From: a virus
Direction: 5' to 3' (one strand)
DNA: 64,000 nt
Virus record (IMG/VR): IMGVR_UViG_3300037471_000902
Coordinates: 32,001-96,000 of that record
The position numbers were made by a program, and so were the translations under genes. The notes below the pieces were generated by a model. That model ran no database searches. It was not told the origin of the DNA and saw only the letters and a list, made by a program, of their open reading frames with translations. This document shows positions 6,680 through 43,420 of this stretch, piece by piece (position 1 is the stretch's first letter; each line of letters opens with the position of its first letter).

Positions 6680-7253
6680 AATCATGGACGCATCGAGCGC
6701 TATCGATATTCATCAGGAATTTGCAGTAGTAAAAGCATTCAGGGCAACCATTTTAGGCACTAGTCGCGATTACGCGACATATCCATTGCCAAAGGGAACT
6801 GTAGTTAAGGTGACAAGCATTCATAACGGTTACGTGCGTTTTTCTACAGGTGACGAGTACACGTTAACCATGACAGAAAATGCTTTTAGGAAGCATATGA
6901 TGAAGCGGGCCGAGTATAGTAGGCAGTGGATGAAGGATTTGAATGAGCAACACACATACAAGCCTCAGCAACAGCTCGCTGTCATTGGCGAGTTCAGCGC
7001 CACTCCAATTAAGAACATTTTCAAGAAGTGGCATCCGTCAAATCGACAGAATCCCGGAATCCGAGTTTTCTCAAAGGACACGCATGATTTCCAATGGAAC
7101 ATCATGTTCGTTAAACAGGAAGGAGATAAGGTATACTTTGATTCTGGTACATGGCGATGGATGGCTGACGCAGCACAATTTTACTCATGCACGAAAGACA
7201 TGAAGATGTGGCGTGGTACTAATTTTCTAAATGATTTGAGTGATGAAGAGTGA
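6666..7253 (+). CDS. Tandem two-domain member of a dispersed small beta-rich paralog family (putative internal head protein)
   Basis: Leader MKLNEIMD; two units of about 95 aa ending WMKDLNE and FLNDLSDEE. Confidence 0.7.
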   Translation: MKLNEIMDASSAIDIHQEFAVVKAFRATILGTSRDYATYPLPKGTVVKVTSIHNGYVRFSTGDEYTLTMTENAFRKHMMKRAEYSRQWMKDLNEQHTYKPQQQLAVIGEFSATPIKNIFKKWHPSNRQNPGIRVFSKDTHDFQWNIMFVKQEGDKVYFDSGTWRWMADAAQFYSCTKDMKMWRGTNFLNDLSDEE

Positions 7254-7268
7254 GTGCCTAAAATTCTG

Positions 7269-7304
7269 AAAAGGGTGTGCATTAAATAACAAGTACACCT
7301 TTTT
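7269..7304 (+). promoter_or_regulatory. TAAATA late-promoter motif in the loop of a 12-bp hairpin
   Basis: aaaagggtgtgc-attaaataacaa-gtacaccttttt with two G-U pairs; TAAATA at 7283-7288. Confidence 0.55.
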
Positions 7305-7309
7305 TGTTT

Positions 7310-7978
7310 ATGAAATTCAAATTTGACTATCCTGAGCTAATGACTGAAACAGTCAATGGCATGCGTATCTACATTACACCTCAAGGTGGTGCATATCCCA
7401 GCATCACAACTGTCCTGGGAAAGACAATGCCTGAAGAGAAGGTGAAAGCACTTGCTAATTGGGCAAATGCGATCGGTCAACTGAATGCGAAGAAGAAAAC
7501 CCAGGACGCAGCCGATCGAGGCACTGCAGTGCACACGCTCATTGAGCGATTCTTGAATGGTGAGGAAGAGTTCTCATCAAGTGAATTCTCTGCTGAAGCC
7601 CTCAACATGTTCAATGCGTTGAAGGTCAAGCTAAAAAAGATCGATGAGATTTGGTGCCAGGAAGTAGGCTTGTACTCTGACCTGCTCGCTCTCGCCGGAC
7701 GTGTAGATTGTATTGGTGTCTACAAGGGAGAGGAAGCAATCATTGACTTCAAGACATCTTCTAGGCTAAAGAGTCAGGAAGACATTGAAGATTATCGGTT
7801 TCAACTGTGTGCCTACGCGCTCATGCACAACGAGATGTTTGGCACCAATATCAATAAGGGCGTTATCTTAATGACGTCAGCGGCTGGTTTCCCGCAAGAG
7901 TTCCATGTAGATTTGATGCCTTACGTAGATAGACTATTTGATCGCGTACAAGACTTCTACAAGAAAATGGCACTATGA
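7310..7978 (+). CDS. PD-(D/E)XK exonuclease (Cas4/MGME1-like phage exonuclease)
   Basis: YPSITTVL, RGTAVH, E..LYS...AGRVDCIG, IIDFKTS, QLCAYA motifs. Confidence 0.9.
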   Translation: MKFKFDYPELMTETVNGMRIYITPQGGAYPSITTVLGKTMPEEKVKALANWANAIGQLNAKKKTQDAADRGTAVHTLIERFLNGEEEFSSSEFSAEALNMFNALKVKLKKIDEIWCQEVGLYSDLLALAGRVDCIGVYKGEEAIIDFKTSSRLKSQEDIEDYRFQLCAYALMHNEMFGTNINKGVILMTSAAGFPQEFHVDLMPYVDRLFDRVQDFYKKMAL

Positions 7979-8467
7979 ATGAAACAAGTCGCCCAGCTAC
8001 ATGGGGATTTCACGCTTGTTTATGCTGACATAAATGGAGTTGAATCCTACGGATTAATGGAAAATGACAAGCTTGTCGCCTTTTGCAAGGTTGAACCTAC
8101 AACAGTTTGTGGCGTAGATTACAAGAAGCTTATTGTCCTATTCACACTATCTAGTTCTCGTGGACTTGGATACTCTCTAATCTTGCTCTATGGCATGAAA
8201 GAGAGCAATATCACACCAATACTGGTTGATGATGCAATCTTTGACGGTGGTTGGGCAGTCATTAAAAAATTAGCACAAAACAAGGCTAATCTATCTGTCA
8301 AGAAGCTTGACAAAAACACTGGCAACGTTTCTGATTTTGATGATTCAAATCCACGTCGAAATCACGCGTTCATTTTAGAAAATGATGGGATTGGCTTCTA
8401 CACCGACTATACTAAATATGGAATGGGTAAAGCCTATTACTATCTTTTTGACGGTGAACTACTATAG
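7979..8467 (+). CDS. Possible GNAT-fold acetyltransferase-like protein
   Basis: LFTLSSSRGLGYS resembles GNAT motif A (R-G-x-G). Confidence 0.45.
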   Translation: MKQVAQLHGDFTLVYADINGVESYGLMENDKLVAFCKVEPTTVCGVDYKKLIVLFTLSSSRGLGYSLILLYGMKESNITPILVDDAIFDGGWAVIKKLAQNKANLSVKKLDKNTGNVSDFDDSNPRRNHAFILENDGIGFYTDYTKYGMGKAYYYLFDGELL

Positions 8468-8491
8468 ATTTGAAGAGTATAAAATACTAAC

Positions 8492-8842
8492 ATGAAAGTC
8501 AACCAGCTACTTCACGACTCTCCTCTAAAAGGTGAGAAGCGTATTGCACTCAACATGCTTGACATTACGAGCGATTTCGTTTTTGCCCGAGTCGAGGGAA
8601 TTAACATAAGAGGCAACTGGATTGGCGCTAGAATTCCAGAAGGCACCCTCATTGAAGTGACTGGCGAAAGAGAAGACGAGATGGGCGAACCAGTTGTGGT
8701 CTTCTCAATTGTTCATGGTGCCGCTGACGAGGAGTATTGCGTCCATGTCAATGATTTTGATGATCGCTTTGTGAAAATTGAAGAACTAGAAGAAAAGAAG
8801 CGCGAACGCAAGTTGAAGTGGTTCAATGATTTGCAGGACTAA
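8492..8842 (+). CDS. Member of the small beta-rich paralog family
   Basis: Leader MKVNQLLHD; IPEGTLIEV core; ends WFNDLQD. Confidence 0.7.
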   Translation: MKVNQLLHDSPLKGEKRIALNMLDITSDFVFARVEGINIRGNWIGARIPEGTLIEVTGEREDEMGEPVVVFSIVHGAADEEYCVHVNDFDDRFVKIEELEEKKRERKLKWFNDLQD

Positions 8843-9381
8843 AACCAATTCGGAATAGTCCGATCCCTCACCTTCCCATCCCACTTGGCGAATCTCAGCT
8901 TATCGAGACGATAAAAGTTTCGATAGCTCTCCACCACATCATCTGACTGATACTGCTCCGGCATTGCCTGGGGTGGGTCAATCCACTCTGCCTCGGGAAT
9001 GTTCTTGGGCGGATTCTCCAACACGTGTCCTAGTCGAATGAACACGTTATGGTCTCTCCCGTACCGCCAGTGATATTCAAACGCTAGAGCAGTGAAGAGC
9101 TCAAAAAGCCACATATAGTGCGCAGAACTTTGGCGCGCCCACTTGACGCATGGATGATTGATGTGAGTGGACTTGAACAGCTTCATTTCCATTCGAGGAT
9201 CGTCCATCCTGTAGCGAATCAGCTTTCGTCCTGACGAATCATCCACGTAAGGTTTACCGTCAAGAACACGGTGCGCAGTAGAGAGAATTTGTGCGTACTC
9301 AATAACCATCTTGAGTACGTGTTTGGAGCAGTGCATTTCTGCACACCTTACCACATCACGATCTAATATGAAAACGTTCAT
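8839..9381 (-). CDS. Pyrimidine-dimer DNA glycosylase family (DenV/endonuclease V-like)
   Basis: MNVFILD start, HVLKMVIEYAQILSTAH, THINHPC..W, PPQAMP, YRNFY. Confidence 0.85.
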   Translation of the reverse strand: MNVFILDRDVVRCAEMHCSKHVLKMVIEYAQILSTAHRVLDGKPYVDDSSGRKLIRYRMDDPRMEMKLFKSTHINHPCVKWARQSSAHYMWLFELFTALAFEYHWRYGRDHNVFIRLGHVLENPPKNIPEAEWIDPPQAMPEQYQSDDVVESYRNFYRLDKLRFAKWDGKVRDRTIPNWF

Positions 9382-13776: not shown

Positions 13777-14289
13777 ATGAGCGAAGAATTGAAGCCGTGC
13801 CCGTTCTGCGGGAGCGCCCCAAGGCTCCTGCGGTTGGTGGAGGCATACCAGGATGCCGATGGACAGCATGCGGGCGAATACGACGCATGGTTCAACGTGC
13901 AATGCGACAACTGCGGCATTGAGCAGGGCGATGAATACCGATCCAGTGCAATTGCAGCATGGAACAAGCGCGCCTCGCGTGACGCGGAGGTGCAGAGGCT
14001 GCAAAGCCCTTCGTACATGCGACACCAGCCCATAAGCAACTGCGAGTGCGCCGACTGCATCCGATTCTTCCAGCTTGCAGCAATCAGGGGCGACGCTATT
14101 CAGCACGATTTGCTCAAGCTTTCCCAAGAGGTTGAAACTTTGAAAAAGAATCTGAAGGATTGGGAAGATAATGCCAAATATCTCCTTGACTCAACACCTG
14201 GTGCTATTCGCTCATGCTACAAGGGACTCGACGAAAATCTGCTCGAGTCCCTCTGCATTACCTACATCAAGTTACGCGGTCAATCTTGA
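13777..14289 (+). CDS. Lar-family restriction alleviation protein fused to an unknown C-terminal region
   Basis: MSEELKPCPFCG...VQCDNCG...AIAAWNKR; GGAGGA RBS at 13768-13773. Confidence 0.8.
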   Translation: MSEELKPCPFCGSAPRLLRLVEAYQDADGQHAGEYDAWFNVQCDNCGIEQGDEYRSSAIAAWNKRASRDAEVQRLQSPSYMRHQPISNCECADCIRFFQLAAIRGDAIQHDLLKLSQEVETLKKNLKDWEDNAKYLLDSTPGAIRSCYKGLDENLLESLCITYIKLRGQS

Positions 14290-15866
14290 TCGAATTTGAC
14301 CTTATCAGGGGTGCCGGCTTTGCGTTCACCAACATAGATAAAAATGCAGAGCATGTCCAAAAAGTCCTTGAGCGGTTCATGGTGTTCGCGGCTAATGTAA
14401 CTCCGCTTTTCACCAGTGATTTTTGTTCTTAGACTGGCACCAAAGGTCTTACGATCTACATACTGTCCATTGACATAGTCGGTTGTTTTAACACTGTTCG
14501 GTTTTATTTCCACTTTAATGTGGTATGGACTCGAGGCTGCAATTTCTTGGATTGCAGCCTCGATTTTCTTTGCGATGGACGGCATCTTTTTATTCCATTC
14601 AGCAATGTCCTTTGCTACAATCGCCATGAACTTTCTAATTTTCTCTTTGGCGTGTTCTTTTTGATTGACAATGAGGTCATCCTTTTGTTTCCGCAAATTG
14701 TTGGCAAAGTCATCCTGTACGTCATCATCATACAAACCAAGCATTAGATCGATCTTTCTAGTGTCAGGTGCTCTCTGCGATATGAGATTGCGAAGTTGCG
14801 CGGTCTCATTAAAAACTGGTGGGTAGATTATTAGTGGATTAACTTTTTCTGGTTTAAACCAGCCAGTGCCATCACCATTATGACGGTAGAGCCCAGTTTT
14901 AGCAGCATTTGTACTAAAGCCCTCATGTTCATGGGGTTTGCTGCGGGCGAGGGCATGATACTGTGGTCCAAATTTTAGCTTCTCGTGTAGGATCTCCATA
15001 ATATCAGACATGATCTCATCACGGCCTTTGGCAGCTTGGACCTCACCATCAAAGATGAAAGTTACCTTATTGCTATCACTCCTGTTAAGGAATTTATCAA
15101 GATTGAACGTCTTGATGTCATCAAATCCATAAAGATTGCTTGCGCCAGGACCGTCAATCCACCCTATTAGATGGAATCCTGATTCCTCAGCCTTGGCTAA
15201 CCATTTCTCAATAGTTTCCTTCTGAAATTGTTTGACTAATTCTCTGTGACTGTCATCTGTCTTAACGCTTGGTTTTTTAAATGACCTAGTCTTAGGGTCA
15301 TACTGTTCCTGAAATTTGAATGGACTCACCTCAATCGTGACGCTCTTAATCTTCCTTTTCTCTAAACCATAGGCTGTCTTCTTGGCATTAGGAGGAGACT
15401 TCATCGAGCTATTGACTGATCCGATTTCAAGAAAGTCCGTCAATTTATCTTTTCTATTTGCTGGTTTTGACGGATCATCTGGCATTCTTGATTGATAGGA
15501 GTTAGCAATCTCCTTGAATGCGCGTGCAAGAACAGAAGATGGGGTTCCTGTTCCAGCTGTTGCTTCGGTCAGATCATCAAGAAACTTCTTATCATAGTCT
15601 TTCTTCAGCACCGTATCTCTGTTAATGTAGTAACGATACGCCCAGAATAGTTCGGGACTGTCTTTCTTTTGGAAGAGAATCTTATCATATCCAGGCATTT
15701 CGCCTGGCACGATTGAATGAACAGTAAGTTCAGTGCCAGGAAAAACATATGTGCCATCCGTTTCACCATGAAAGGAAAGCGCGTAAAAGTTCTCTTCTGT
15801 CGAGATTAGTTTTGTACCCGGTTCTAGGTCTAGATACGCTTCAGAAATAAATTGCTTGAATCTCAT
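14280..15866 (-). CDS. Putative internal head polyprotein: N-terminal paralog-family domain plus a large unknown domain
   Basis: Leader MRFKQFISEA; VFPGTELTVHSI core; first domain ends FLDDLTEA. Confidence 0.7.
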   Translation of the reverse strand: MRFKQFISEAYLDLEPGTKLISTEENFYALSFHGETDGTYVFPGTELTVHSIVPGEMPGYDKILFQKKDSPELFWAYRYYINRDTVLKKDYDKKFLDDLTEATAGTGTPSSVLARAFKEIANSYQSRMPDDPSKPANRKDKLTDFLEIGSVNSSMKSPPNAKKTAYGLEKRKIKSVTIEVSPFKFQEQYDPKTRSFKKPSVKTDDSHRELVKQFQKETIEKWLAKAEESGFHLIGWIDGPGASNLYGFDDIKTFNLDKFLNRSDSNKVTFIFDGEVQAAKGRDEIMSDIMEILHEKLKFGPQYHALARSKPHEHEGFSTNAAKTGLYRHNGDGTGWFKPEKVNPLIIYPPVFNETAQLRNLISQRAPDTRKIDLMLGLYDDDVQDDFANNLRKQKDDLIVNQKEHAKEKIRKFMAIVAKDIAEWNKKMPSIAKKIEAAIQEIAASSPYHIKVEIKPNSVKTTDYVNGQYVDRKTFGASLRTKITGEKRSYISREHHEPLKDFLDMLCIFIYVGERKAGTPDKVKFDQD

Positions 15867-16744
15867 TTCAGTTCTTCTGGAATTGGAAGCTTGGCTTCTT
15901 TGAGTGATTTTATTGCATCAGCAAAAATCTCTTGAGCATCTTTTCTAGCCCTAATTTGCTTGATGACGTCTTCGGCAGTCATGATGTCTTTTGCTGATAC
16001 ATTCTGTCCAAATAGGAATTTGGCAACAGTATCTGGATCAGTGATGATATCTGGATTTGGGTCAAACTTAATATTCTTTCCAGAGATAGCCTGGGCGTGC
16101 ATGGCTAATTGGCCTGGATCCATCTTATTCATCGTCTTTCCAAACGTCTTTGTTTCCTTGTCATATTTTGCGGCTTTAAACAGCCGCTCTACGCCAGTGT
16201 CTAATTTGATAGCTCTTGACGCACGAGCTACGACTTCACCCTTATACTTCATGATGAAATCTTTTCCACCTTCATGAGTATGGCGCATCGCTGCCATGAG
16301 AAGGAAGTTTCTAACTACGCCTGGATACTTAGACTTGTCACCTTCGGAAGAATAGTAGATGAACTTTGCCCATGTTTTGTCATTCACAAACATTAAGTCA
16401 ACCTGAACTTTCTTTCCGCCCACATCTACTGCGTATGAGCCGATTTTTGTTCCCTTGTTGAACGTGCCCTCATTGTTTACCAATTCCATCATTTTCAAAT
16501 TGGCTTGTTCGCTAGACATCTCATCATTTCCTATGACGATGTCAATGTCACCGCTATCATTCTTTTTACCCGCAAGAGTGAGGTGAACCGTTCCAAGAGT
16601 GCGGTTCTTGATATCGGGCAAATTGAGAGTTCGACCCACGATGTCAAGGGCTTTCTCAATGTCTTCTTTCGTTGCTCGCTGAGTGTTGAACTTCTCAGTT
16701 GCAGCACCGCCCTCAGCAAGAAATTGTTTGAATGTTGTGACCAT
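15863..16744 (-). CDS. Pol-beta-superfamily nucleotidyltransferase with a capsid-targeting-like leader
   Basis: LGT...SGDIDIVI (hG[ST]...DxD) and third Asp in VQVDLMF; leader MVTTFKQFLAE. Confidence 0.75.
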   Translation of the reverse strand: MVTTFKQFLAEGGAATEKFNTQRATKEDIEKALDIVGRTLNLPDIKNRTLGTVHLTLAGKKNDSGDIDIVIGNDEMSSEQANLKMMELVNNEGTFNKGTKIGSYAVDVGGKKVQVDLMFVNDKTWAKFIYYSSEGDKSKYPGVVRNFLLMAAMRHTHEGGKDFIMKYKGEVVARASRAIKLDTGVERLFKAAKYDKETKTFGKTMNKMDPGQLAMHAQAISGKNIKFDPNPDIITDPDTVAKFLFGQNVSAKDIMTAEDVIKQIRARKDAQEIFADAIKSLKEAKLPIPEELK

Positions 16745-17801: not shown

Positions 17802-20800
17802 ATGGCAACAATTAAGGACTTCTTCGTTAAACAAGGTGCACAGGCAACGACAACACTCGTTGCGGGTGCAGGTCAGGCAAACCAGCTCACACTCGCTGGT
17901 GGAGCATCCGGCTCTCCGGGCATTGTGAGCCTGACAGCGTCTGGCACTGATACTAACATCAACGTAAACGTAGTCACCAAGGGAACCGGCATATTCACTG
18001 TTAACGGTAACCCCATCACGGTGACTCCGGCTGGCACGAGTGGACAAGTCCAATACAATAACAGCGGATCATTCGGTGCTTATTCGATCACTGGTACTGC
18101 TGGTTCTGTTGTTATGTCCAACGCGCCGACAGTCGTAGGCGGATCATTCACAGCCCTAACGACTCTTACTGTTCGCAACGCCGGTACTGGTGCGTTCGAT
18201 ATGTCTGTCTCGCACAACGGAACCCTAACTGCGAACAGAACCCTAACAGTCAATCTTAACGACGCATCGCGAACTCTCTCCCTTGCAGGCGACTTAACAC
18301 TAGCAGGTGCGTTCACTACTTCCGGCGCAAACGCACTGACACTGACAACTACTGGTTCGACTAACGTCACGTTGCCTACTGCGGGTACACTTGCGACTCT
18401 GGCAGGAACAGAGACGTTCACCAACAAAACGCTGACCACACCGCAAATTAACGCGGCAACAGTCGGCGTAAATGCGGCGGTAACTGCAGGTACTAACGCA
18501 CAGGGTCAAGGTGCTCTCACTAGCGACATCAACGTCATCACGACGAACGCGTCGAACCCAGGTGGTGTGACTCTGCCTACCGCTACGGTAGGACGTTGGG
18601 TTTCAATTGTTAACAAGTCAGCTAACCCACTGAAGGTTTATCCAGCCTCTGGCGCCGCGATTGATGCCGGTGCAGCTAACGCTTCAATTGATCTTCCTGC
18701 TGGTGGTAAGCTAGAATTCCTTGCTAGCTCGACCACGCTGTGGCACTCGTCTGCGACAGGCGCCAAGGGCAACGGTATCCTGACTCTGGCAGGTAATTTG
18801 ACCACGTCAGGTGCGTTCGCTACCACCTTCACAATGACTGGTGCTACAAGCGTCACCTTCCCAACGTCTGGTACACTGATGACCACGACTGGTAACACGT
18901 CAGGTCAGGCAGGTTCTGTTGCAAACGCGGTCACGTTCAACAACGGTGGTGCAGGTGCTGCATCAGGCTCGACGTTCAACGGTTCGTCTGCAGTCACTGT
19001 ATCGTACAATACGATCGGTGCTCCATCAACAACAGGTACAAACGCGTCCGGTACATGGGGCATCTCGATCTCGGGAACCGCAACCAACGCGACAAACGTT
19101 GGTATTACTGACGACACAGCAACCAACGCTACGATGTATCCAGCGTGGGTTACTGCCAACACTGGTAACCTACCAGTAAAAACAACGTCGACAAAGCTGA
19201 CGTTCAACCCATCAACAGGTGTACTGTCCTCGACGTCGTTCACTGGTGCAGGTACCGGATTGACTGGTACTGCAGGCTCATTGAGTATTGGTGGTAACGC
19301 CGCCACGGCAACCAAGGTCAATAACGCTGTCACGTTCAACAACTCGAACTCTGGTGCCGCATCTGGAACAACATTTGATGGTTCCAGCGCGATCACCATT
19401 TCGACGAACACAATCGGCGCTGTTCCACTAGCCGGTGGAACAATGACTGGATCATTGACACTGAATGCAGACCCAACTCAAGCATTGCACGCTGCGACGA
19501 AGCAATATGTTGATGCAACTGCTAGTGGCTTGGATATCAAGGGTTCTGTTCGCGCTGCTACTACCGCGGCTCTGACTGTCACCTACTCTAACGGCGCAAG
19601 CGGCGTTGGTGCAACGCTTACCAACGCTGGTGCTCAAGCAGCTTTTGTTCTTGATGGTGTAACTCTTGCCACAAACGATCGTGTTCTCGTCAAGAACCAG
19701 GCATCTGCATTCCAGAACGGTATCTACACGGTCACTAACATTGGATCAGGCTCTACTAACTGGGTGCTGACTCGAGCTGTTGACGCTGATACAGCAACTG
19801 AAGTTACACCAGGTCTCTTCACATTCATTGAGGAAGGAACGACGCTAGGTGACACTGGCTGGATCTTGACATCCACTGGTGCAACGACTATCGGTACTAC
19901 CAACCTGCCATTCACCCAGTTCTCTTCAGCTGGTGTGGCTACCGCGGGTAACGGTATCGTTCAATCGGGTAACGTTTTCCACTTTGCGAAGTCTTCGAAC
20001 TATACTGTTGGCGATCTTTTCTACGCCAACTCTACGACGGGACTTACGACACTAACAGCTGTCGCGACAGGTAATGCAATTATTTCTGGTGGTGTTGGTG
20101 CTGCTCCATCATGGGGTAAGATTAACCTCGACACTTCTGGAACTGCACACGTAACTGGTACTCTGCAAGTTGGATCTGGTGGTTCTGGTGCTACGACACT
20201 AACTGGATACCTCAAGGGCAACGGTACTTCTGCCTTCACCGCATCGGCAACAATTCCTGGTGCTGACATTAACGGCAACATTTCTGGAAATGCAGCAAAC
20301 GTAACTGGCACTGTCGCGATTGCTAACGGTGGTACTGGCGTGACCTCGACTACTCAGTGGGGTATCGTATACGGTGCGTCAAGCACCACATATGGAACAA
20401 CTGCGGCTGGTACAGCTGGACAGGCGCTTGTTTCCAACGGATCTGCAGCACCAACATGGCAGACACTTGACATGTCGTATCTGCCAGATTCTGCATTAAA
20501 GAAATCTGTAAAGGCGGCAACCACAGCTAGCGTCACCCTCGCTGGTTCTGCACCCAACACGCTTGATGGTGTCACACTTGCAGCTAACGACCGCATTTTG
20601 GTTAAGAACCAGGCTACTGCTGCTCAGAACGGTATCTACATTGTTCAAACTCTGGGTACAGGCGCTAACGGTACTTGGGTTAGATCCGCAGATGCTGACG
20701 TTGCTAGTGAAATTGCAGGTGGTTTTGTAAACGTTGACCAGGGAACTGTCAACGGCGGACTGATGTTCAAGACGACGTTCAAGACGACTGACACGCTTGG

Positions 20801-21839: not shown

Positions 21840-21858
21840 CGACAGTTTTAATCAGGTT

Positions 21859-21887: not shown

Positions 21888-21934
21888 CCTCATGCGCCAG
21901 TGGATAAATAAAGCGTTGATCGCTAGGAAATTTA

Positions 21935-28662: not shown

Positions 28663-28665
28663 TCT

Positions 28666-31600: not shown

Positions 31601-32754
31601 CAGTAACTAGCAACGGCGGAAAGGTTCTGACTCTCGCTGGTAATTTGACAACGTCTGGAGCATTTGCTACTACCCTAACAGCTACTGGAACCACAACTGT
31701 TACCCTACCCACGACAGGTACACTGGCAACACTGGCTGGAACAGAAACGTTTACCAGCAAGACATTAACTAGTCCAACGGTCAACGGTGGAGCTTTGACG
31801 GCACTGACTGCTCTAGGAATTAGATCAACGGGTACGGGCGCTTTTGACCTTACACTTGCCAATACCGAAAACCTGACGGCTGGCCGCACGCTTACACTGA
31901 AGGTCAATGACGCTGCACGTACAGTCGATTTGGCTGGTAACCTGACGCTCGCATCATCCTTCACCACGAGTGGCGCCAACGCACTCACGTTGACCACAAC
32001 AGGTTCAACGAACGTCACGTTGCCAACGAGCGGAACGCTGGCAACGCTGGCTGGCACTGAGACATTGACTAATAAGACACTGAGCGCACCAGTAGTCTCG
32101 TACGCCTCAGTTACACCTGGCACAAACACGCAAGGTCAAGGTGCAATGACTGCGGACATCAACGTGGTCAGTACAGTTGGAAGTAACCCGTCCGGTGTAA
32201 CTCTGCCAACGGCCACTACAGGAAGAAGAATCACTGTAATTAACCGATCTGGTGGAAATATTGCAGTTTTTCCAGCGTCTGGTGGAACAATCGATACATT
32301 GACAATCAATGCGTCGGTTGTTATGCCAGTAAACAGTATCCTTGAGTTTTTTGCAACGTCAAGCACCCAGTGGTACTCCACGTCTGTTCGAGTTTTATCA
32401 GGCTCAACTAATGTATACGGACTTGGTTATGCTCCGACGGGAACAGGTAGTACTTTACAGCAGAGTTCACCTCGAACAACATCTGTCACAATAAACACAC
32501 TAAGTGGATACTTCCTGATGGCTTCAGTTGCACAAGCTGACGCAGACGCAGGGGCAGTAATATTCACAGTAAACAATTCTGCGGTTGCATCGCAGGATGT
32601 CGTTATTGCAAATGCATGTAGTTCTAGCTATGATTGGGTTGTACAAGTAGTCAAGGTTGGAAGTGGTTTCTTTAGACTGCGCGTGGTAAACGTGAACGGT
32701 TCCTCTGTGACTGAAGGTACACCGATCTCATTTGCAGTGTTCAAGAACACATAA
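28666..32754 (+). CDS. Long mosaic tail fibre protein
   Basis: 1362 aa; MALNFPSSPTPGQTYT..WTWDG N-terminal module; multiple TLPT.GTLATLAGTET.TNKT cassettes; duplicated YNTYTDASNYER. Confidence 0.85.
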   Translation: MALNFPSSPTPGQTYTFGSKTWTWDGTVWNLTPTVALSSQYGGTGVNNAGKTITLGGNLTTSGSNDLTFTTTGSTNITLPTTGTVATLDGVETFTNKTISAPVVIGPVDQRDGTTGQDYRLYNTYTDASNYERAYLRWTGNVLKFGTEAAGTGVVRDIWVVAGTGGNVYIGANTAPRWLVNNTAAFLPAADNTQTIGSASAQVSVVYIGSRIQLNAVGYLAWGADTNMYREAASTLAYRNGGQPNTLRIYNTYTDASNYERLRLGFATNIAYLSTESLGTGTQRGLVINAATQDFQIAGSTKWSIDSSGNLTATGSNDITTSGDFTAGNHRIFSFTRTVPTTVGVEVDIGTFSLLTVGTTNIDMWINVQSSSFSVAKRYNIPVTYGATSGAWQTVVPINNSGPYLGNDFDLEIQVNSGSALLRMRRSAGTTAGTAYIVMSVAGVSSDAFSPSTTTSAVAAPTVKYAPALVNIDTVTNPDINGGTVDSLTTLSIRNQGTGAFDLSFVHNGTMTAGRSLTLNVNDASRSISLSGDLTLASALTTVGAFTLSLTTTGTTNVTLPTTGTLATLAGTETFTNKTIGDTLTLGAAGSATSPQILLNGSSMNWIQFTIAGVGAPAFTTRSSGTKLVLWPQVDATNVDYAIGIENSNIWFSVPTSASQYGFKWYTGTTNAATLNSVGLTVTGTIAASNLSLGGNFATSGASALTLTTTGATNVTLPTAGTLATLAGTETLTNKTLTTPQINAATVGVAATVTAGTNAQGQGALTSDINVVTTASNNPSGVTLPTATVGRWVSIVNSGANPLKVYPASGAAIDGLGANVAVDLPVGAKLEFLASTTTKWHSSATGAKGAGVLTLAGNLTTSGAFATTLTMTGATSVTLPTAGTLATLAGTETLSNKTISGGTFSGTIAGTPTISGNWTMDGAFPGMYLNENDQGTDLKKWFMVVDGQQFQFQTRTDANAVIATPFAVNRSGNLTVLGTVTSNGGKVLTLAGNLTTSGAFATTLTATGTTTVTLPTTGTLATLAGTETFTSKTLTSPTVNGGALTALTALGIRSTGTGAFDLTLANTENLTAGRTLTLKVNDAARTVDLAGNLTLASSFTTSGANALTLTTTGSTNVTLPTSGTLATLAGTETLTNKTLSAPVVSYASVTPGTNTQGQGAMTADINVVSTVGSNPSGVTLPTATTGRRITVINRSGGNIAVFPASGGTIDTLTINASVVMPVNSILEFFATSSTQWYSTSVRVLSGSTNVYGLGYAPTGTGSTLQQSSPRTTSVTINTLSGYFLMASVAQADADAGAVIFTVNNSAVASQDVVIANACSSSYDWVVQVVKVGSGFFRLRVVNVNGSSVTEGTPISFAVFKNT

Positions 32755-36492: not shown

Positions 36493-36942
36493 ATGAAGAT
36501 TCGCGACATCATTGAAGGAAACGTTACCCACATAAAGCGCGTTCTTGATCTGGCAACAGGTGAGTGGAAGATGATTGACATGTCTAAGGCAAAGCCAATC
36601 AGCATGATGGCTGCACTTGGCGATGAAGAAGGTGCAGCCCTCCAGGAAGCTGGAGTTCATCTGGCTGAGAAGCCAGATGATTGGGAATATCTTGATGATC
36701 ACTACGTCATTACTCCTTCTAAGATGCGAAAGGTTGAAGAAATCTTAGGACGCGAACTTGATCGTGTAGCTGGTGAAACTCTTTTTGGTGGTGTAAAACC
36801 TCGAGGTCCTCTTGCTCAACTTAGCAAGGAACCGAAGAGAGGGATTTTTGTCATTCAGTTCGTGCAGGATGGCAGCAAATATCTTGTAAACACATTGCAC
36901 GCCAACTCATACATTCGTATGTGGGCTAAGATTGACGTATGA
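36493..36942 (+). CDS. Hypothetical protein with a capsid-targeting-like leader
   Basis: MKIRDIIE; internal MMAALGDEE...LQE. Confidence 0.7.
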   Translation: MKIRDIIEGNVTHIKRVLDLATGEWKMIDMSKAKPISMMAALGDEEGAALQEAGVHLAEKPDDWEYLDDHYVITPSKMRKVEEILGRELDRVAGETLFGGVKPRGPLAQLSKEPKRGIFVIQFVQDGSKYLVNTLHANSYIRMWAKIDV

Positions 36943-37493
36943 AACTTCACAAAATTCTTCTAGAACAGGAACGTGGCTGGCGCGTTCTGCATGGCGCGGA
37001 AGCTGACAAAGATGAGTACGTTGGTGCTCGGGTTGGTACACTAGATGACACAACCTACGACGAGCTTGTTGCTATTTTAGGTGAACCAACTGAAAAAAAT
37101 GTCGGTGATGATTTTGATAAGTGTGCTGTCAAATGGGTCATTCTTGGAAATGATGGAACAGTTTGCCGCATTTATGACTACAAGCAGTCCACACAGTACA
37201 CTGGCGACGAAGACTTAGAATTCAGCAATCTCCATGATGATGAGGATGTTGCTAGGGAATTGGAAATGAAACAACATGGAAGGTCGCAAACTGAAGCTGA
37301 GAGATTGGGGGTTTCGCGTGTCAATTCGTGGAGTATTGGTGGTGGAGCAAACGACATTGAAAAGAGATTGCATGATCGGTTCGGGCAAAGGATGACAGCT
37401 GGCGTCGCCGTTGAATTAGCCAAAAAAATATTTGGTGATAAAGCTGTTCACAGCATCTTTGAGAAACCCTTTAGGGACATGTTTAACAGTTAA
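36939..37493 (+). CDS. Phage protein (TTYDELV..LGEPT...IYDYK...WSIGG type) with a capsid-targeting-like leader
   Basis: MKLHKILLE leader; ATGA coupled. Confidence 0.7.
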   Translation: MKLHKILLEQERGWRVLHGAEADKDEYVGARVGTLDDTTYDELVAILGEPTEKNVGDDFDKCAVKWVILGNDGTVCRIYDYKQSTQYTGDEDLEFSNLHDDEDVARELEMKQHGRSQTEAERLGVSRVNSWSIGGGANDIEKRLHDRFGQRMTAGVAVELAKKIFGDKAVHSIFEKPFRDMFNS

Positions 37494-38147: not shown

Positions 38148-38177
38148 AAAAAAGGGAGCCTATGAAAGCTCCCTTTT
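38148..38177. terminator. Bidirectional intrinsic terminator at a convergence point
   Basis: aaaaaagggagc-ctatgaaa-gctccctttt between convergent genes. Confidence 0.8.
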
Positions 38178-38625
38178 AAGTTGGGTTGGATGTCTCTGGG
38201 AGGATCAGATCCTCACCATCAAAAATTTTGACTGTCCCATAACCAAAAACCTTCTCAAGGGCTTCTCTGTAGCGAAGCTGCAGACTTGGCAAGACAAAAC
38301 TCGCATGTGAGGAGCGTGATGACTTGACGGTAACATCAGCATGAACTTGATGACCACGTGGATACATCTTCTCCTTCTTAAGAAGTTCCTTCACGTGATT
38401 AGCTACTTCAGGATCATCGCTCAAATCACTTATCAAGTCATGCTTCAAATCCTTTAGATCACCCTTTCTTCGCAGTCCATGCACATAGACGTCCTCGCAA
38501 TTGCCTAGAGCCTTCTTCAAGGCATCTATGATTTCCGTCTCACTCATCTCTCTACTCAGCGTGATGACATAGTAGATGGCATAGTATGAGTAATTCTCGG
38601 CAAGAAATTGTTTGAACGTGTTCAT
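38176..38625 (-). CDS. Putative internal head protein
   Basis: Leader MNTFKQFLAE; internal LISDLSDDPEV. Confidence 0.7.
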   Translation of the reverse strand: MNTFKQFLAENYSYYAIYYVITLSREMSETEIIDALKKALGNCEDVYVHGLRRKGDLKDLKHDLISDLSDDPEVANHVKELLKKEKMYPRGHQVHADVTVKSSRSSHASFVLPSLQLRYREALEKVFGYGTVKIFDGEDLILPETSNPT

Positions 38626-40205
38626 GCGCTTTCTCTAATTTTTCGGCGGTAGTAATCCACACCCTGTAGATCAATACCATTCACGGCATTTCCTACGCCG
38701 TCATGGTGAATAAGACCATATGCAAACTCGCCCTTTGTAAGCGAAGGATAGCGAGCACTGTGTGGCGTCTGCTTGATTGGTTTTCCAGCAATCGTGGTTT
38801 TGCCGGACGCATTGTAGCCGTTCCAGTAGGGCTTTATTTCAGCCTTGTAGAATTGAATCATTGCTTTTGTGGCTTTATACGCATCACAGCGGTCTGCGCA
38901 TGCTGTAGTGCCATGATATTTCAATGCAATTTTGTCAAGCATTTGATAGAGCCCCATCGCAGAACTTGTTGGGTTCTTAGCATAGGGGTTATATCTAGAC
39001 TCAATCTTTGCAATGAACTTGATAAGCTTTTTGTCCTCAGCATCTAGTGAACCATCCTCATCAAGTGCACGCTCAATTTCAGCATTCACCGCGTTGGCAT
39101 CTGGAATCACACTGGGGGTGCAATCAGATACAGATGGCATCTGATTGCTAGATGGTGGAGTAGTGCTATTTGGTTCAGATGTTGTGGGATCAGATCCAAT
39201 CACTAGTGGACAGCCACCACCGCTTCTAGCATTCACTTCGTGCTGCGTAAGTGCTGGTGACGTGTTAGTTCTTGTTTGATCTGCTGGCTGCGATCCGTCA
39301 TTCTGGACGGGTGGGGTAATTATTATAGACCCACGAATATACGGGGTCGGATCAACTGGTGTACTACCACCTAAATGCAGCTCAAAGTGCAGGTGGGGAC
39401 CAGTGCTAGCACCCGTAGATCCTTCAAGCGCGATGACTTGTCCTTGACGAACTTTTTGTCCATTGCTTACAAGAAGTTGTTTGCAGTGGGCGTATAGCGT
39501 CATGCCTAGAAGTTTACCGTCAGCTGCCTTGTGATTGATTCTAATGCAGTTGCCATATCCACCAGCTGATCCAGCAAAGCACACGTCTCCATCAGCAGCA
39601 GCTACAATTTTGCCTTGACCCTTTGCACCAGGAGACATGGCAACCCAGTCTTGACCCTTGTGGAATTTCTGAACTTTAGAGATCGGATGAATGCGTGGGC
39701 CGAAACCGCTGTTAACCTTTGCTGATCCTGACGAAGGAACGTACGGTTGGACTAGGGAGAAGGACTCCCCTTTTGTTGGTTTGCTAGGAGAGAAAGTGAA
39801 TTGGCGAGAGTCAATGACGCCCTCGCTATCATTCGCGGTGATTGTAATTTGGAACGTTGCACCTTCTTGCGAGGTGTCAACAGTACCACTCAACTTGCCA
39901 GTTGATGAGACAAACGAGAGTCCAGGAACCGATGGACTCATTGTCCACGATGTTGCTGTGCGAGGTCCCTGTGAAAGCGTAAACGTCTCATCGACTTTCA
40001 ATTGAGCGTCAGCAGTGATAGAGGTGTTTTGAATTCTATTGACTAAATCTTGGCGCGCGTCGTCCTTTGGACCCGCATCATTTCCGCGCAATGCGTAGCA
40101 ATCAATGTTTTCACCGGGCAAAATCTCAGTAAAAGGAACTCCATTGTTTGGAGGAATCCTCGTGGGACGTTCATTTACTACCGGTTTTTCGCAACCACAA
40201 CTCAT
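38622..40205 (-). CDS. Multidomain peptidoglycan hydrolase: Ig-like + M23 peptidase + lysozyme/transglycosylase-like
   Basis: PGLSF..STGKLSGT (Ig-like); HKGQD and GPHLHFE (M23); IESRYNPYAKN..SSAMGLYQ (SLT-like). Confidence 0.85.
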   Translation of the reverse strand: MSCGCEKPVVNERPTRIPPNNGVPFTEILPGENIDCYALRGNDAGPKDDARQDLVNRIQNTSITADAQLKVDETFTLSQGPRTATSWTMSPSVPGLSFVSSTGKLSGTVDTSQEGATFQITITANDSEGVIDSRQFTFSPSKPTKGESFSLVQPYVPSSGSAKVNSGFGPRIHPISKVQKFHKGQDWVAMSPGAKGQGKIVAAADGDVCFAGSAGGYGNCIRINHKAADGKLLGMTLYAHCKQLLVSNGQKVRQGQVIALEGSTGASTGPHLHFELHLGGSTPVDPTPYIRGSIIITPPVQNDGSQPADQTRTNTSPALTQHEVNARSGGGCPLVIGSDPTTSEPNSTTPPSSNQMPSVSDCTPSVIPDANAVNAEIERALDEDGSLDAEDKKLIKFIAKIESRYNPYAKNPTSSAMGLYQMLDKIALKYHGTTACADRCDAYKATKAMIQFYKAEIKPYWNGYNASGKTTIAGKPIKQTPHSARYPSLTKGEFAYGLIHHDGVGNAVNGIDLQGVDYYRRKIRESA

Positions 40206-40208
40206 GGT

Positions 40209-40814
40209 TTATTTTCCTAGCTTGCACTTGAACTTACCATCGTGGAAGTAAAGAGTCATCATTACCTGCATCGTTAAGTATGGGAAATATTCATCATTTG
40301 TAAATTCATTCCACGCATCAATTACACAATTGATGAAATGTTCACCAGTGATTTCATTTGGTGTTAAGTCATCACCCATATAACGACTAAAACCCCTCGT
40401 GGCCATGGCGCGCATTGAGGCACTGGCAATGCCAATGCGTTTGAGTTCTCTAAAAAGAAGATTCAAGCTATCAACAGCATCAAGTAAAGATTGTTCAATC
40501 TGTGATTTTTGTTCTGGTATCTCAAGGTCTTCATTTCCATCATAAAGATTGTCTAGGAAATGTTTGTTGGAATCGGCTTGCTTAATTTGGCAAATGACTG
40601 AAATGTTATCATCATTTTTAAATTCGTGCACATTAGTAAAAACCGAGAGATCAATTTGCTCATTATTTGACTGTAACAGATTTACATATCCTGCTGGCGA
40701 GTTGGGATGCAATCTCCCTGGCACCTTGCGGTTAAACGCAGCCTCAAGCATTGTTCTCACAATATTACTAAGAATTGTCCCGCGCCGATAACTGGCCACT
40801 TCGTTTAATTTCAT
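40209..40814 (-). CDS. Hypothetical protein with a capsid-targeting-like leader
   Basis: MKLNEVA; internal FLDNLYD. Confidence 0.65.
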   Translation of the reverse strand: MKLNEVASYRRGTILSNIVRTMLEAAFNRKVPGRLHPNSPAGYVNLLQSNNEQIDLSVFTNVHEFKNDDNISVICQIKQADSNKHFLDNLYDGNEDLEIPEQKSQIEQSLLDAVDSLNLLFRELKRIGIASASMRAMATRGFSRYMGDDLTPNEITGEHFINCVIDAWNEFTNDEYFPYLTMQVMMTLYFHDGKFKCKLGK

Positions 40815-41107
40815 TTTGATGATTGTTGATCGAGCTTCTTCTGTTCGTCGCTTAGAAACTTTGCGATTTCATGAAGTTTTGCTTCGAGTTCTTCAACGCG
40901 CATATTCATTTCGGCTGCCCAACGAGCAACGTCAGATTGATCTGCCTTGTCCCAATCAACACTAGGTAATGGAGCTGGAATAGTAAGCGATTCTTTGGGA
41001 GGAACGCGAAGAATGTATTCCTGCTTTACAACAGTTGTTGGTTCAATCTTTTCCACTGACGCACAACCCGTCAGCAGAATCATTAATGCTAAAGCGATCT
41101 TCTTCAT
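40811..41107 (-). CDS. o-spanin (Rz1-like lipoprotein)
   Basis: Signal peptide with lipobox LLTGC, Pro-rich middle; directly downstream of the i-spanin. Confidence 0.8.
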   Translation of the reverse strand: MKKIALALMILLTGCASVEKIEPTTVVKQEYILRVPPKESLTIPAPLPSVDWDKADQSDVARWAAEMNMRVEELEAKLHEIAKFLSDEQKKLDQQSSK

Positions 41108-41514
41108 TTCTTCTTCCTTTTCTGGATGTCCTTTAGAGTCTCACGAAGAACGGGAGCAATAGTTCCGTTGTTTCGTGGATCCTTCAGCATCTCATCAATT
41201 TTCTTGTTAGCGTCAGCGAGATTTGCTTGGCTGACTTGCTTTTGTTTAGCGAGTTCTGCAATCAACGCTTGAGCATCCTTGCGCTCTTCCAAAAGCTTCT
41301 TGTTAGCTTCTACCGTAGATTGATTTGCCTTAGCAGCTTCTTCAAGATTAAACTTCAGCGTGGTATTGTTGGCTTTCAAAATAGCGTTGTTCTCTTGAAG
41401 CGTAGACACTTGCTTCTCAGCAGAGTGGAGTTGAAACCTTGTGAGACCCAGAATTAGTGCGAGTACCAAAACTGCACCAATGAGGACCTTTGTCAAAATG
41501 CTACCGGTGAACAT
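41104..41514 (-). CDS. i-spanin (Rz-like)
   Basis: N-terminal TM helix and a long coiled coil. Confidence 0.8.
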   Translation of the reverse strand: MFTGSILTKVLIGAVLVLALILGLTRFQLHSAEKQVSTLQENNAILKANNTTLKFNLEEAAKANQSTVEANKKLLEERKDAQALIAELAKQKQVSQANLADANKKIDEMLKDPRNNGTIAPVLRETLKDIQKRKKK

Positions 41515-41546: not shown

Positions 41547-41867
41547 TCATAGCTTCTTGCTCGTCAGACCTCGCATAAACTTCATATGGTCGTCACGTAC
41601 TTTCTGTTTCGCAAAGCCAGCAGGTTTTGCAAACTTTTCAAACTTAGCCCGATCCATTTGAAAGTCGAGATTAGGATTACTAGCATCACAGAATTGTACA
41701 ACCGTGTCAGTTAGATCAGTGATTTGGTACAGGTGATCATCGTAGACCGCTACTTCACCTTTTTTAAAGAATGAATATGCGCGCGTCGAAGTTTTGAATT
41801 CAAATTCCATATCTACTTCAAGCGTCATTTCGACTATCAATGACCCCAATTCTTGTAGAAGTTTCAT
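41547..41867 (-). CDS. Member of the small beta-rich paralog family
   Basis: Leader MKLLQELGSLIVE (ATGA coupled at 41867); ends KFMRGLTSKKL. Confidence 0.65.
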   Translation of the reverse strand: MKLLQELGSLIVEMTLEVDMEFEFKTSTRAYSFFKKGEVAVYDDHLYQITDLTDTVVQFCDASNPNLDFQMDRAKFEKFAKPAGFAKQKVRDDHMKFMRGLTSKKL

Positions 41868-42094
41868 AGAGTTCTGCGTGATGCAGTAGTTAGGGCGCGG
41901 AGAGCCGCGTTGAACGCACAAGGTTCGACACGAAGGTTACCCAAATCATAGTCATTTATGACTGATTCATCAACTTCATTGAAGTGGAAAATTCCCTTGT
42001 TGCCAATCTTCTCAATGTAGTCTAGGCGATAGCCTAAAAACTTCAAGGAAGCTGCTAGAAGAATGTCTTGGGTTTCGATGGTCTTTTTGGACAT
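41864..42094 (-). CDS. DUF5659-like small protein
   Basis: ETQDILLAASLKFLGYRL..IEK.GNKGIFHF; late-promoter hairpin upstream. Confidence 0.6.
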   Translation of the reverse strand: MSKKTIETQDILLAASLKFLGYRLDYIEKIGNKGIFHFNEVDESVINDYDLGNLRVEPCAFNAALRALTTASRRTL

Positions 42095-42096
42095 GT

Positions 42097-42138
42097 TCTT
42101 TCCTATAGATTGATCAGATATTTATGATCTAGGAAAGA
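42097..42138 (-). promoter_or_regulatory. TAAATA in a hairpin loop whose 3' arm contains the RBS
   Basis: tctttccta...gatca-gatattta-tgatc-taggaaaga; motif at 42119-42124. Confidence 0.6.
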
Positions 42139-42144
42139 TTGGGA

Positions 42145-42429
42145 CTAGCTTTTTAATGAATTCAGGAAGGCACGATCAAATTCACGTTTCGGCGACGTCG
42201 AATTAAGGAATGTTTTCTCGTCAAGATCGAATAATCCAGCATCAACATCAGTCGCGTCGATAAAATAGACGCGTCCATTCTTTCTTTCCTTAACAAGGAT
42301 TTTGTGTCCTGGGGAGAAATAATTGTCAGGAGGCGGGACATTCCCGCACTCGCACCCGGCTTCGAAAGGCTTCGTGACAACGAACATGTCGGCACTTTCG
42401 AATAGATCAAATAAATCACAGACTTTCAT
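42145..42429 (-). CDS. Member of the small beta-rich paralog family
   Basis: MKVCDLFDLFE; FVVTKPFEA...FSPGHKILVKERKNGRVYF; ends FLNSLKS. Confidence 0.7.
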   Translation of the reverse strand: MKVCDLFDLFESADMFVVTKPFEAGCECGNVPPPDNYFSPGHKILVKERKNGRVYFIDATDVDAGLFDLDEKTFLNSTSPKREFDRAFLNSLKS

Positions 42430-42980
42430 TCAAATTCCTTCAAATGCTTAATCAACTCGACAGTCTGTCTGACATCCTTGCTATATTGATACATGGCATC
42501 GCGCTGTTTCTGACCGTGCAGCGAGTTTATCTTCTTCAGGTACTCGCGTGAGTTTAGGTAATGATAGCGCGCACCAACAGCATTCTTAAGCCATTTTTCG
42601 AAACCATATTTAAAGCCGTCGCGCGTGAGCACGAATAGTAGGGACCAATCAACACGCACCTCAAAACTTTTATCGGGGGTTAGTATACCTTCAAGTGCCT
42701 CGAACTCTTTATCAAGTTTCTTAAGCGCTTTGTTAGCTAATGAGCTGAGCTGATCCTTTTCATCTATGGACAGCAAATCATAGTAGTCAAAGCAAGTATT
42801 ACTGACGTTCCATTTGAAAGTAACAACATACTCCCCATCACCAGCCCATGCGTATTTTCTCTTATCGATAGTGACGTTAACGAATTTGTCCGCTTTTGCA
42901 AGTTCATGTTTTGCACGTTCAAAATAGATCTTCCTGTACTCTGGTGGGAAGTCACCATCGATAAGTTCACTAAATTTCAT
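42426..42980 (-). CDS. Hypothetical protein with a capsid-targeting-like leader
   Basis: MKFSELID; ATGA coupled. Confidence 0.65.
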   Translation of the reverse strand: MKFSELIDGDFPPEYRKIYFERAKHELAKADKFVNVTIDKRKYAWAGDGEYVVTFKWNVSNTCFDYYDLLSIDEKDQLSSLANKALKKLDKEFEALEGILTPDKSFEVRVDWSLLFVLTRDGFKYGFEKWLKNAVGARYHYLNSREYLKKINSLHGQKQRDAMYQYSKDVRQTVELIKHLKEFE

Positions 42981-43420
42981 TTTCGTCTACCCATGCGGCG
43001 ATCGTGGGCACGTTGTCTTAATTCATCTTGTACGTCAGGATCATCATGCAGATCATGAAGTTTCAGCTTGTTTGCAGAAAGATATTGCACGTCTCTTAGC
43101 ATGTTGTGTGCAGCTAAAGCAATTTCATCTGCTTCAAAGCGACCTGGAGAGTTAGGAGAAGAGAAGTGCGGTTTGAAGTACTCACTTTTGATTTCATTCT
43201 CGTCTCCGAACAGTCGCAGACGAACTTGCTCCATATATTCATGATACTCAATCTCAACACACGGGTCATCTTCTTCTGTAGCAGCCGCATTGTAGACGAT
43301 GAGCATGTGCTCACCATGAAAATCCTCGATATACAGCTTACCACCCCTCAATTCATCCTTGATGTTCTTGATTGGGTTTTGAATCTTGAAACGATTTTCA
43401 AGAAGCTCTATGAATTTCAT
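42977..43420 (-). CDS. Hypothetical protein with a capsid-targeting-like leader
   Basis: MKFIELLE; C-terminal LHDLHDDPDV. Confidence 0.7.
   Translation of the reverse strand: MKFIELLENRFKIQNPIKNIKDELRGGKLYIEDFHGEHMLIVYNAAATEEDDPCVEIEYHEYMEQVRLRLFGDENEIKSEYFKPHFSSPNSPGRFEADEIALAAHNMLRDVQYLSANKLKLHDLHDDPDVQDELRQRAHDRRMGRRK

Follow-up and report, generated by a model that had tools for sequence, protein, structure and literature searches.

A portable internal module shared by leader-bearing proteins of an uncultured jumbo phage

We analysed a stretch of 64,000 nucleotides (the window), bases 32001-96000 of one 111,857-bp virus contig (IMG/VR record IMGVR_UViG_3300037471_000902), and found that otherwise unrelated proteins encoded on this contig share a short module, here called P2. 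We are highly confident that P2 is a real, portable and selected module tied to proteins that begin with a leader like the capsid-targeting sequence (CTS) of phage T4. The original prediction, made on the letters of the window, had listed twelve peptides as copies of one single tag. All twelve translate with the coordinates and on the strands exactly as given there, and the single tag resolved into three groups: six peptides are the terminal helix of a small domain, F1 (WMKDLNE, FLNDLSDEE, WFNDLQD, FLDDLTE, FMRGL and FLNSLKS), five belong to P2 (LMLGLYDDDV, FSNLHDDEDV, LISDLSDDPEV, FLDNLYD(GNED) and LHDLHDDPDV), and one is noise.

The contig comes from an uncultured jumbo phage. Its baseplate and tail genes match uncultured phage genomes of 320-368 kb in IMG/VR, with up to 78% identity for the gp25-like protein; these genes match those of Ralstonia phage RsoM2USA at 43% and those of Xoo-sp13- and PA5oct-type jumbo phages at about 41-43%. 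Completeness of the contig is estimated by CheckV at about 31%. Its protein set, obtained by longest-ORF calling with two starts corrected by eye, comprises 126 open reading frames (ORFs) and 36,576 residues. For comparison we used two complete relatives, G001 (343 kb), with which the contig mostly shares gene order, and G002, together holding 224,920 residues, plus 65 other fetched loci. Positions above 64000 extend the window numbering past its 3′ end (locus L002). Leaders were called in all genomes by a single fixed T4-CTS-like rule, which admits some false positives, for example a helicase. It was passed by 22 of the 126 ORFs of the contig, 40/558 in G001 and 23/585 in G002, with starts such as MRFKQFISEA, MNTFKQFLAEN, MKFIELLEN and MKLHELFEA. 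Both relatives encode a T4-type prohead protease (Pfam Peptidase_S77, PF03420; 84.7 bits in G001 and 90 bits in G002); no PF03420 match was found in the contig itself, which lacks the head genes.

The P2 module and its copies

P2 spans 25-40 residues and follows the pattern phi-[DN]-phi-S-x-L-x-D-[DG]-[DPN]-[DE], where phi is hydrophobic, continued by a variable, mostly basic helix. Twelve copies were found in ten proteins of the 112-kb contig. Five of them fall within the range of the listed peptides (an asterisk marks the stop codon):

14664-14774, minus strand: P2 IDLMLGLYDDDVQDDFANNLRKQK, at residue 375 of the 528-residue product of gene 14280-15866; matched by regular expression and profile
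37191-37301, plus strand: P2 DLEFSNLHDDEDVARELEMKQH, gene 36939-37493, between the IYDYK strand and WSIGG; matched by regular expression, profile score 39.9 bits
38353-38463, minus strand: P2 HDLISDLSDDPEVANHVKELLKK, gene 38176-38625; matched by regular expression, profile and the foreign-only profile described below
40476-40586, minus strand: P2 KHFLDNLYDGNEDLEIPE, gene 40209-40814; LYDG[DN]xDLxIP subtype, matched by regular expression and profile
42980-43090, minus strand: P2 KLKLHDLHDDPDVQDELRQRAHDRRMGRRK*, C-terminus of gene 42977-43420; matched by regular expression and profile

The other seven are carried by 66649-67236, 67628-68515 (two copies), 72105-73133 (two copies), 74604-76040 and a gene located 21,243-20,845 bases upstream of the window start. 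Copies begin at residues 65-393 or lie at the C-terminus, none being at the extreme N-terminus. The LYDG[DN]xDLxIP subtype is common to 40209-40814 and 72105-73133, and a near-identical strain variant of 40209-40814 (P0065) has kept P2. Gene 14280-15866 carries an N-terminal F1 domain as well as P2.

The regular expression [LIFMVW]x[DNSEG]LxD[DG][DPNE] matched 13 times in the 126 ORFs, against an average of 0.5 and a maximum of 4 in residue shuffles. In G001 and G002 the same expression gave three loose matches, a rate at which 0.49 would be expected here (Poisson p for at least 13 = 9e-15). The extension of the motif to L-x-D-D-(x)-[DE]-V, which had also been pointed out, is matched strictly three times, with 0.016 expected. 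Broader patterns exceeded shuffles about twofold, both [FWLM][LMFI]x[DNSG]L.. (19 versus 9.3) and [FW][LMF]x[DNSG]L (16 versus 7.2). The tag had been described as acidic and amphipathic. Acidity was confirmed by a mean net charge of -3.8 across 13 residues, and amphipathicity was not borne out, hydrophobic-moment z-scores ranging from -1.1 to +2.3. At the DNA level P2 copies share just the GAT GAT codons, those for Leu being different; similarity is thus, as had been stated, that of protein, and P2 as a DNA repeat or mobile DNA element was rejected.

A hidden Markov model (HMM) of the 12 copies, the profile referred to above, scored its members at 19-45 bits and the next protein at 7.5 bits, and retrieved nothing from G001, G002 or the 65 other fetched loci. 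Since the P2 pattern had been defined after the fact, a second HMM was built from six foreign homologs of 36939-37493, with no sequence from this genome. Searched against the contig, this foreign-only HMM ranked 36939-37493 first, followed by 42977-43420 (the best non-self match, at 17.5 bits and E = 1e-5), 67628-68515 (both copies) and 38176-38625, with no false positives above them; in the relatives it found nothing. P2 is restricted to the lineage of this phage.

Beyond the module the carriers show no detectable homology. Flanks of 65 residues on each side showed no leave-one-out homology among carriers, and the family HMM of 36939-37493 aligned to other carriers over the module alone, so that one hidden paralog family for all carriers was rejected. 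The carriers gave no Pfam or PHROGs match above threshold; the one exception was CTP_transf_like, which matched the enzyme part of 74604-76040. Close homologs of the carriers were found neither among GenBank phages nor in IMG/VR. A word-index search with 38176-38625 returned nothing, and the ESM Atlas gave weak leads only for this protein; with the module profile the word index returned P0065 and nothing else. EF-hand, dockerin, clamp-binding and TolB-box patterns, judged by eye, were discarded on spacing. No Shine-Dalgarno-like sequence precedes the Met of three modules as a possible internal translation start; true starts here often do without one too.

Grafting into unrelated proteins and association with the leader

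In 36939-37493 the motif had been suspected of being grafted in between IYDYK and WSIGG, and comparison with homologs upheld this. A HMMER scan of 1.84 billion representatives with this protein returned 57 relatives. The stretch between IYDYK and WSIGG measures 41-54 residues in exactly seven sequences (36939-37493 and P0004-P0009) and 6-29 residues in about 46 others, an insertion of 35-45 residues relative to the short homologs. In the seven long forms the stretch holds phi-D-phi-S-x-L-H-x-D-P-E followed by a Lys-rich helix. One foreign long form, P0004, lies on a 332-kb contig; IMG/VR and metagenome scans for the family yielded short-form relatives only. Pairwise identity within the long-form family is 0.41 in the module core and 0.39 in the domain core, versus 0.19 in the following helix and 0.22 in the C-terminal region. 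The P2 core is under purifying selection in this family.

The AlphaFold model of 36939-37493, computed with 41 family members, reached a predicted local distance difference test score (pLDDT) of 87.4 and a predicted template modelling score (pTM) of 0.82. The insert consists of a helix at residues 95-98 (F-S-N-L), a turn, and helices at 102-113 and 119-123, all with pLDDT 83-92. A fold search of the PDB with this model gave no meaningful match (best template modelling score 0.32). The single-sequence model of 67628-68515 is unusable at pLDDT 39.6; its helices 139-154 and 280-294 begin directly after the two DDP[ED] motifs. Other copies also sit in added sequence. P2 of the leader-bearing cytidylyltransferase-like enzyme 74604-76040 lies in a 185-residue C-terminal extension missing from its orthologs, and three P2 genes are inserted in a baseplate cluster that is otherwise collinear with relatives.

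The prediction of a short motif common to sequence-unrelated, leader-bearing proteins holds for P2: a leader is present in 9/10 P2 proteins versus 13/116 other ORFs (Fisher p = 2.7e-7). In the family of 36939-37493, five of the seven insertion-bearing members have a leader versus one of the ~51 others (p = 2.7e-5), a comparison that is not phylogenetically independent; because the seven long forms make up one clade, the link may reflect a single event. By the same rule four of the six foreign long-form homologs possess a leader.

P2 had been put forward as a second signal; its N-terminal half resembles the leader itself. Protein 67628-68515 starts with the leader MKVSNLFEHD and contains the modules MDLSNLIDDP and IDFSSLVDDP. 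With a position-specific scoring matrix (PSSM) of 15 MK-phi-x-x-L-phi-E leaders from G001 and G002, applied in one fixed register, the 12 modules average -7.7 versus a background of -19.8, and the predicted register is the best within +/-3 residues in eight of them. All 12 have a hydrophobic residue at -3 relative to the invariant Leu (position 0), and the position equivalent to leader Met1 is Met in 5/18 module copies. The four residues upstream of the Leu are more leader-like than those of control L-x-D-acid sites (p = 0.001), a result that is partly circular because the P2 pattern itself demands a hydrophobic residue at -3. The triplet that follows is Leu-x-Asp in all 12 copies and Leu-His-[S/A/D/P] in foreign homologs. 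At the level of sequence, the resemblance is illustrated from the other side by one leader:

42951-42974, minus strand: leader MKFSELIDGD, N-terminus of gene 42426-42980; matched by the P2 regular expression at residue 3

This leader scores 3.9 bits on the P2 HMM yet is the top N-terminus on a P2 PSSM (11.5). Such likeness in its N-terminal half speaks against P2 being another type of signal.

Leader proteins of the contig contain 45 [LI]xE triplets versus 57.6 expected from shuffles, and the other proteins 232 versus 198.6 (p = 0.013). Such a depletion is the pattern expected, if weakly expressed here, under exposure to a Glu-specific prohead protease.

The F1 domain and neighbouring genes

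The six peptides of the other class close a beta-rich unit of ~90 residues, F1. An alignment of eight units, two of them upstream of the window, shows shared strands and then a closing 13-residue C-terminal helix with the consensus +E[FYW]x+x[WF][LM]x[SD]Lx[DES], which forms the domain end in 8/8 copies. In leave-one-out HMMs that included the tail, the omitted unit ranked 1-7 of 678 proteins; with the tail removed, three of the eight ranked first (41547, 42145 and a copy 1,068-802 bases upstream of the window start), one further copy ranked 10th and the others were undetected. By these ranks, and as far as sequence comparison goes, the F1 tail is what a partly demonstrable paralog domain conserves best, inherited with the domain rather than standing free as a tag. 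The six copies in the window are the following, all assigned by the F1 alignment and the leave-one-out models:

6909-6947, plus strand: F1 tail AEYSRQWMKDLNE, closing the first F1 domain of gene 6666-7253
7206-7250, plus strand: F1 tail MWRGTNFLNDLSDEE*, closing the second F1 domain of gene 6666-7253
8801-8839, plus strand: F1 tail RERKLKWFNDLQD*, C-terminal end of gene 8492-8842
15564-15602, minus strand: F1 tail KDYDKKFLDDLTE, closing the N-terminal F1 domain of gene 14280-15866
41550-41597, minus strand: F1 tail RDDHMKFMRGLTSKKL*, gene 41547-41921, whose domain body ranks first even without the tail
42148-42186, minus strand: F1 tail REFDRAFLNSLKS*, end of gene 42145-42429, which ranks first with and without the tail

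The true start of gene 41547-41921 is probably MKLLQELG, and 42145-42429 matches the copy 1,068-802 bases upstream of the window at a BLASTP E of 0.002. F1 tails fit the leader register on the leader PSSM. Just two copies are internal, those at 6909-6947 and 15564-15602; they end in L-N-E (100th percentile on the leader PSSM) and in L-T-E, followed by ATAGTG (99.5th percentile), respectively. Both ends are compatible with the L/I-x-E rule for cleavage in T4, and the proteins concerned may be split at these sites. That F1 tails are the same motif as P2 was considered and not borne out, the P2 HMM reporting two of them at -1.6 and -1.8 bits; on a half-motif PSSM of P2, 3/8 F1 tails fall in the top 5% of background. 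The remaining listed peptide is not a copy of either element:

36604-36630, plus strand: MMAALGDEE, gene 36493-36942; absent from the P2 HMM match list and without the F1 tail pattern, hence in neither class

Several neighbouring genes deserve mention. The leader-bearing genes 66649-67236, 67628-68515 and 72105-73133 (L002:2649-3236, 3628-4515 and 8105-9133) lie between gp6-, gp25-, gp5- and gp27-like baseplate genes and are absent from relatives, which have different leader-bearing genes at or near those junctions (e.g., L024:10369-11022 and L010:14057-14308); the baseplate junctions look like hot spots for the insertion of cargo genes. The leader-bearing cytidylyltransferase-like gene 74604-75863 (L002:10604-11863; Pfam CTP_transf_like E = 3.5e-7) adjoins baseplate genes in all relatives examined, the 185-residue C-terminal extension being present in this phage only, and its product is a candidate packaged nucleotidyltransferase. 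In G001, the region at ~163-182 kb (L070-L071) holds about ten genes arrayed in tandem, their products 277-441 residues long and all starting MRFK[DQAS][YF][LI]xE, very near the T4 leader MKTYQEFIAE.

Within the window, gene 15863-16744 (minus strand) encodes a 293-residue leader protein starting MVTTFKQFLAEGG; few leader proteins are conserved in G001, and this is one of them (E = 2.6e-94, start MINFKTFLLMEGG). It gives a weak, sub-threshold match to the DNA polymerase beta palm (nucleotidyltransferase) model. The 1304-residue product of 1444-5358 (plus strand) has a leader-like start and an RNA-ligase-like N-terminus (KxDG; Pfam RNA_ligase below threshold), and matches G001 at E = 3e-293. 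At 40811-41514 (minus strand) lie two overlapping ORFs that are also conserved in G001. One is small and lipoprotein-like (MKKIALALMILLTGC...), the other has a membrane helix at its N-terminus and a coiled coil. Judged by eye, they look like a spanin pair; they are located amid cargo genes and adjoin the 527-residue gene 38622-40205. Three giant fibre-like proteins of 1345, 1664 and 1362 residues are encoded at 17802-32754 (plus strand) and share long internal repeats, with up to 82% identity over 203 residues; a 321-residue protein upstream of their genes has its C-terminal ~120 residues in common with them.

Possible roles of P2

In the CTS of the T4 internal protein IPIII, residues 4 and 7 govern targeting and residues 8 and 10 govern processing; with Asp at position 10 the sequence still targets but is no longer processed (PMC9026906). 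Cleavage by gp21 takes place after L/I-x-E (PMC9026906). In giant phages such as phiKZ, 201phi2-1 and SPN3US, which have paralogous families of head and ejection proteins with propeptides, many internal virion proteins share short features read by a gp21-like protease that cuts after Glu (PMC9026906).

Our tentative preference is to read P2 as a relative of the leader that sits inside the protein, cannot be cleaved and adds a contact with the prohead core or the protease; on balance of the analysis we regard this as a possibility to be treated with reserve. The module is built from two or three hydrophobic anchors (phi at -5 and -3, Leu at 0) in a short helical turn, an acidic turn in which Asp(-Pro-Glu) caps the next helix, and then a variable helix, mostly rich in Lys, Arg and Gln. 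It has been grafted into loops, between domains or onto the C-termini of otherwise unrelated accessory proteins. Its kinship with the leader would lie in a hydrophobic i/i+3 pair and a Leu-x-acid triplet in the same register, with Asp in place of the Glu after which a gp21-type protease cuts, making the module uncleavable. P2 might thereby give its carrier one more contact, not open to cleavage, with the core or, acting as a pseudo-substrate, with the protease, and the protein would stay whole. Head packaging of any of the carriers, binding through P2 and resistance to cleavage are inferences.

Like P2, the T4 CTS (MKTYQEFIAE; on IPI-III and Alt, removed by gp21) is a short peptide on otherwise unrelated, hypervariable accessory proteins. 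In both, two hydrophobic residues are spaced three apart, and a hydrophobic-x-acid triplet comes next. A CTS with Asp for its terminal Glu targets without being processed (PMC9026906), and P2 has Asp there naturally; the phage group of P2 encodes a protease of the gp21 family, Peptidase_S77, as seen in relatives. P2 departs from the CTS in its position, which is internal or C-terminal, and in its number, each carrier having one or two copies besides a normal leader. It runs on into an Asp-Pro-Glu helix cap and then a basic helix, neither of which the CTS has; P2 also lacks a terminal L/I-x-Glu and is missing from close relatives that have leaders. The families of the giant phages named above are recognisable paralogs with cleavage motifs, whereas P2 carriers have no detectable homology outside the module and no conserved Glu site.

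Elements that dock proteins inside an HK97-fold shell and can be transferred to foreign cargo include the basic, C-terminal coat-binding helix-turn-helix of the phage P22 scaffolding protein and the C-terminal, Gly-Ser-Leu-rich cargo-loading peptides of encapsulins. P2 has in common with them that it is a small charged helical or peptide element; it shows no sequence likeness to them, is acidic first and varies in position. To our knowledge, T4-type leaders are the sole described route by which these phages load foreign or accessory proteins into the head, their ten N-terminal residues being held sufficient.

Several observations weigh against an uncleavable leader relative. The resemblance to the leader is one of pattern and in part a consequence of how P2 was defined. 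Foreign homologs have Ser, Ala, Asp or Pro at the position of the cleaved Glu, and their best-conserved residues, the next Asp and Pro, have no leader counterpart and are classic helix N-cap residues; a preference for Asp over Glu is predicted by helix capping alone. AlphaFold presents P2 as an ordered helical insert (pLDDT 83-92), not as a free peptide. The depletion of [LI]xE is weak, with no such effect in G002. Lastly, G001 and G002 are leader-rich (40 and 23 ORFs) yet without P2, which makes P2 dispensable for leader-based loading. For the same reason the general two-signal system of the original prediction could not be sustained: both relatives combine a T4-type prohead protease and leader-like ORFs with zero P2.

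The main rival is a purely structural insert, since the foreign homologs have not kept an acid at the putative cleavage position, Asp-Pro are cap residues, capping predicts Asp and the model is ordered. P2 would then be a self-contained helix-turn-helix held by its anchors and two N-caps ([DN] at -4 and Asp-Pro-Glu), spread by shuffling or descent, with no common partner. In a helix N-capping box with hydrophobic staple, Asp or Asn precedes the helix, Pro-Glu lies in its first turn and hydrophobic residues bracket the cap. P2 is like this in that the confident model of 36939-37493 has a short helix at F-S-N-L and starts the next directly after Asp-Asp-Glu; the low-confidence model of 67628-68515 likewise starts helices right behind both DDP[ED] motifs. 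Leu, Asp and Pro are the (near-)invariant residues of homologs, the surface helix behind them varies in length and sequence and is not consistently amphipathic, and relatives use the same leader system without P2. A generic cap, however, cannot account for 12 copies in 36,576 residues versus three loose matches in 224,920, a 25-fold enrichment in one phage; it leaves the near-exclusive tie to leader proteins unexplained, as well as the retention of a 35-45-residue loop insert when the domain can fold without one, as in about 46 homologs. We find this explanation rather doubtful. The first proposal, that P2 is a second signal unlike the leader and docks all carriers to one other partner (a component of the tail hub or of ejection, packaged DNA or, once injected, a host target), appears unlikely to us. 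It shares the evidence of recurrence, portability and leader association, three carriers lie inside the baseplate hub/wedge cluster next to gp5-, gp27- and gp25-like genes, and its acidic patch, with the Lys/Arg-rich helix behind it, might suit binding to DNA or to the surface of a protein. Against it, the N-terminal half of the module is leader-like rather than new, and the remaining carriers sit away from tail genes. Relatives with conserved baseplate, tail and head genes are without P2, so that a conserved structural partner is improbable unless it has changed in this lineage.

A role of P2 as a site for cutting polyprotein-like cargo into pieces, by the prohead protease or some other one, is very unlikely. 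The two internal F1 tails ending in L-N-E and L-T-E match the T4 rule, and proteins with two P2 copies look like domain-module-domain-module arrangements; P2 itself, however, has Asp, not Glu, in 12/12 copies, and Asp blocks T4 processing (PMC9026906). Homologs have no conserved phi-x-E in or beside the module, a cut in 36939-37493 would divide a folded domain in the AlphaFold model, and several P2 copies are at the very C-terminus. Least probable by far is chance, i.e., a degenerate acidic pattern arising by accident in small D/E-rich proteins. It would suit the merely twofold excess of the broad patterns and MMAALGDEE, which fits no model, and for that peptide alone it stands. For P2 it is excluded by the 13 matches versus 0.5 expected, the sharp HMM gap after 12 copies, detection by the foreign-only HMM and conservation in homologs from other samples.

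A wider version of the preferred reading, which we consider speculative and improbable as it stands, would make leaders, F1 tails and P2 three uses of one code, phi-x-x-Leu-x-acid, read by the prohead core and the protease. Glu would mean dock, then cut and release (leaders and LNE/LTE junctions), and Asp would mean dock but stay uncut (P2 and terminal tails). If this were true, the phage could choose for each protein between release and tethering, and could set the points at which polyproteins split. The Asp-for-Glu reading, if correct, would give the 1996 T4 mutagenesis result a counterpart in a natural design, and it might serve to anchor proteins uncleaved inside T4-type capsids. Should P2 turn out to be only structural, it would still show plainly how a mini-module is shuffled among phage accessory genes that evolve fast. 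A second module of this sort on leader proteins, being internal, conserved and transferable, could mean that loading, retention or release is tuned beyond the leader, and it could serve as a handle for spotting injected cargo in uncultured jumbo phages.

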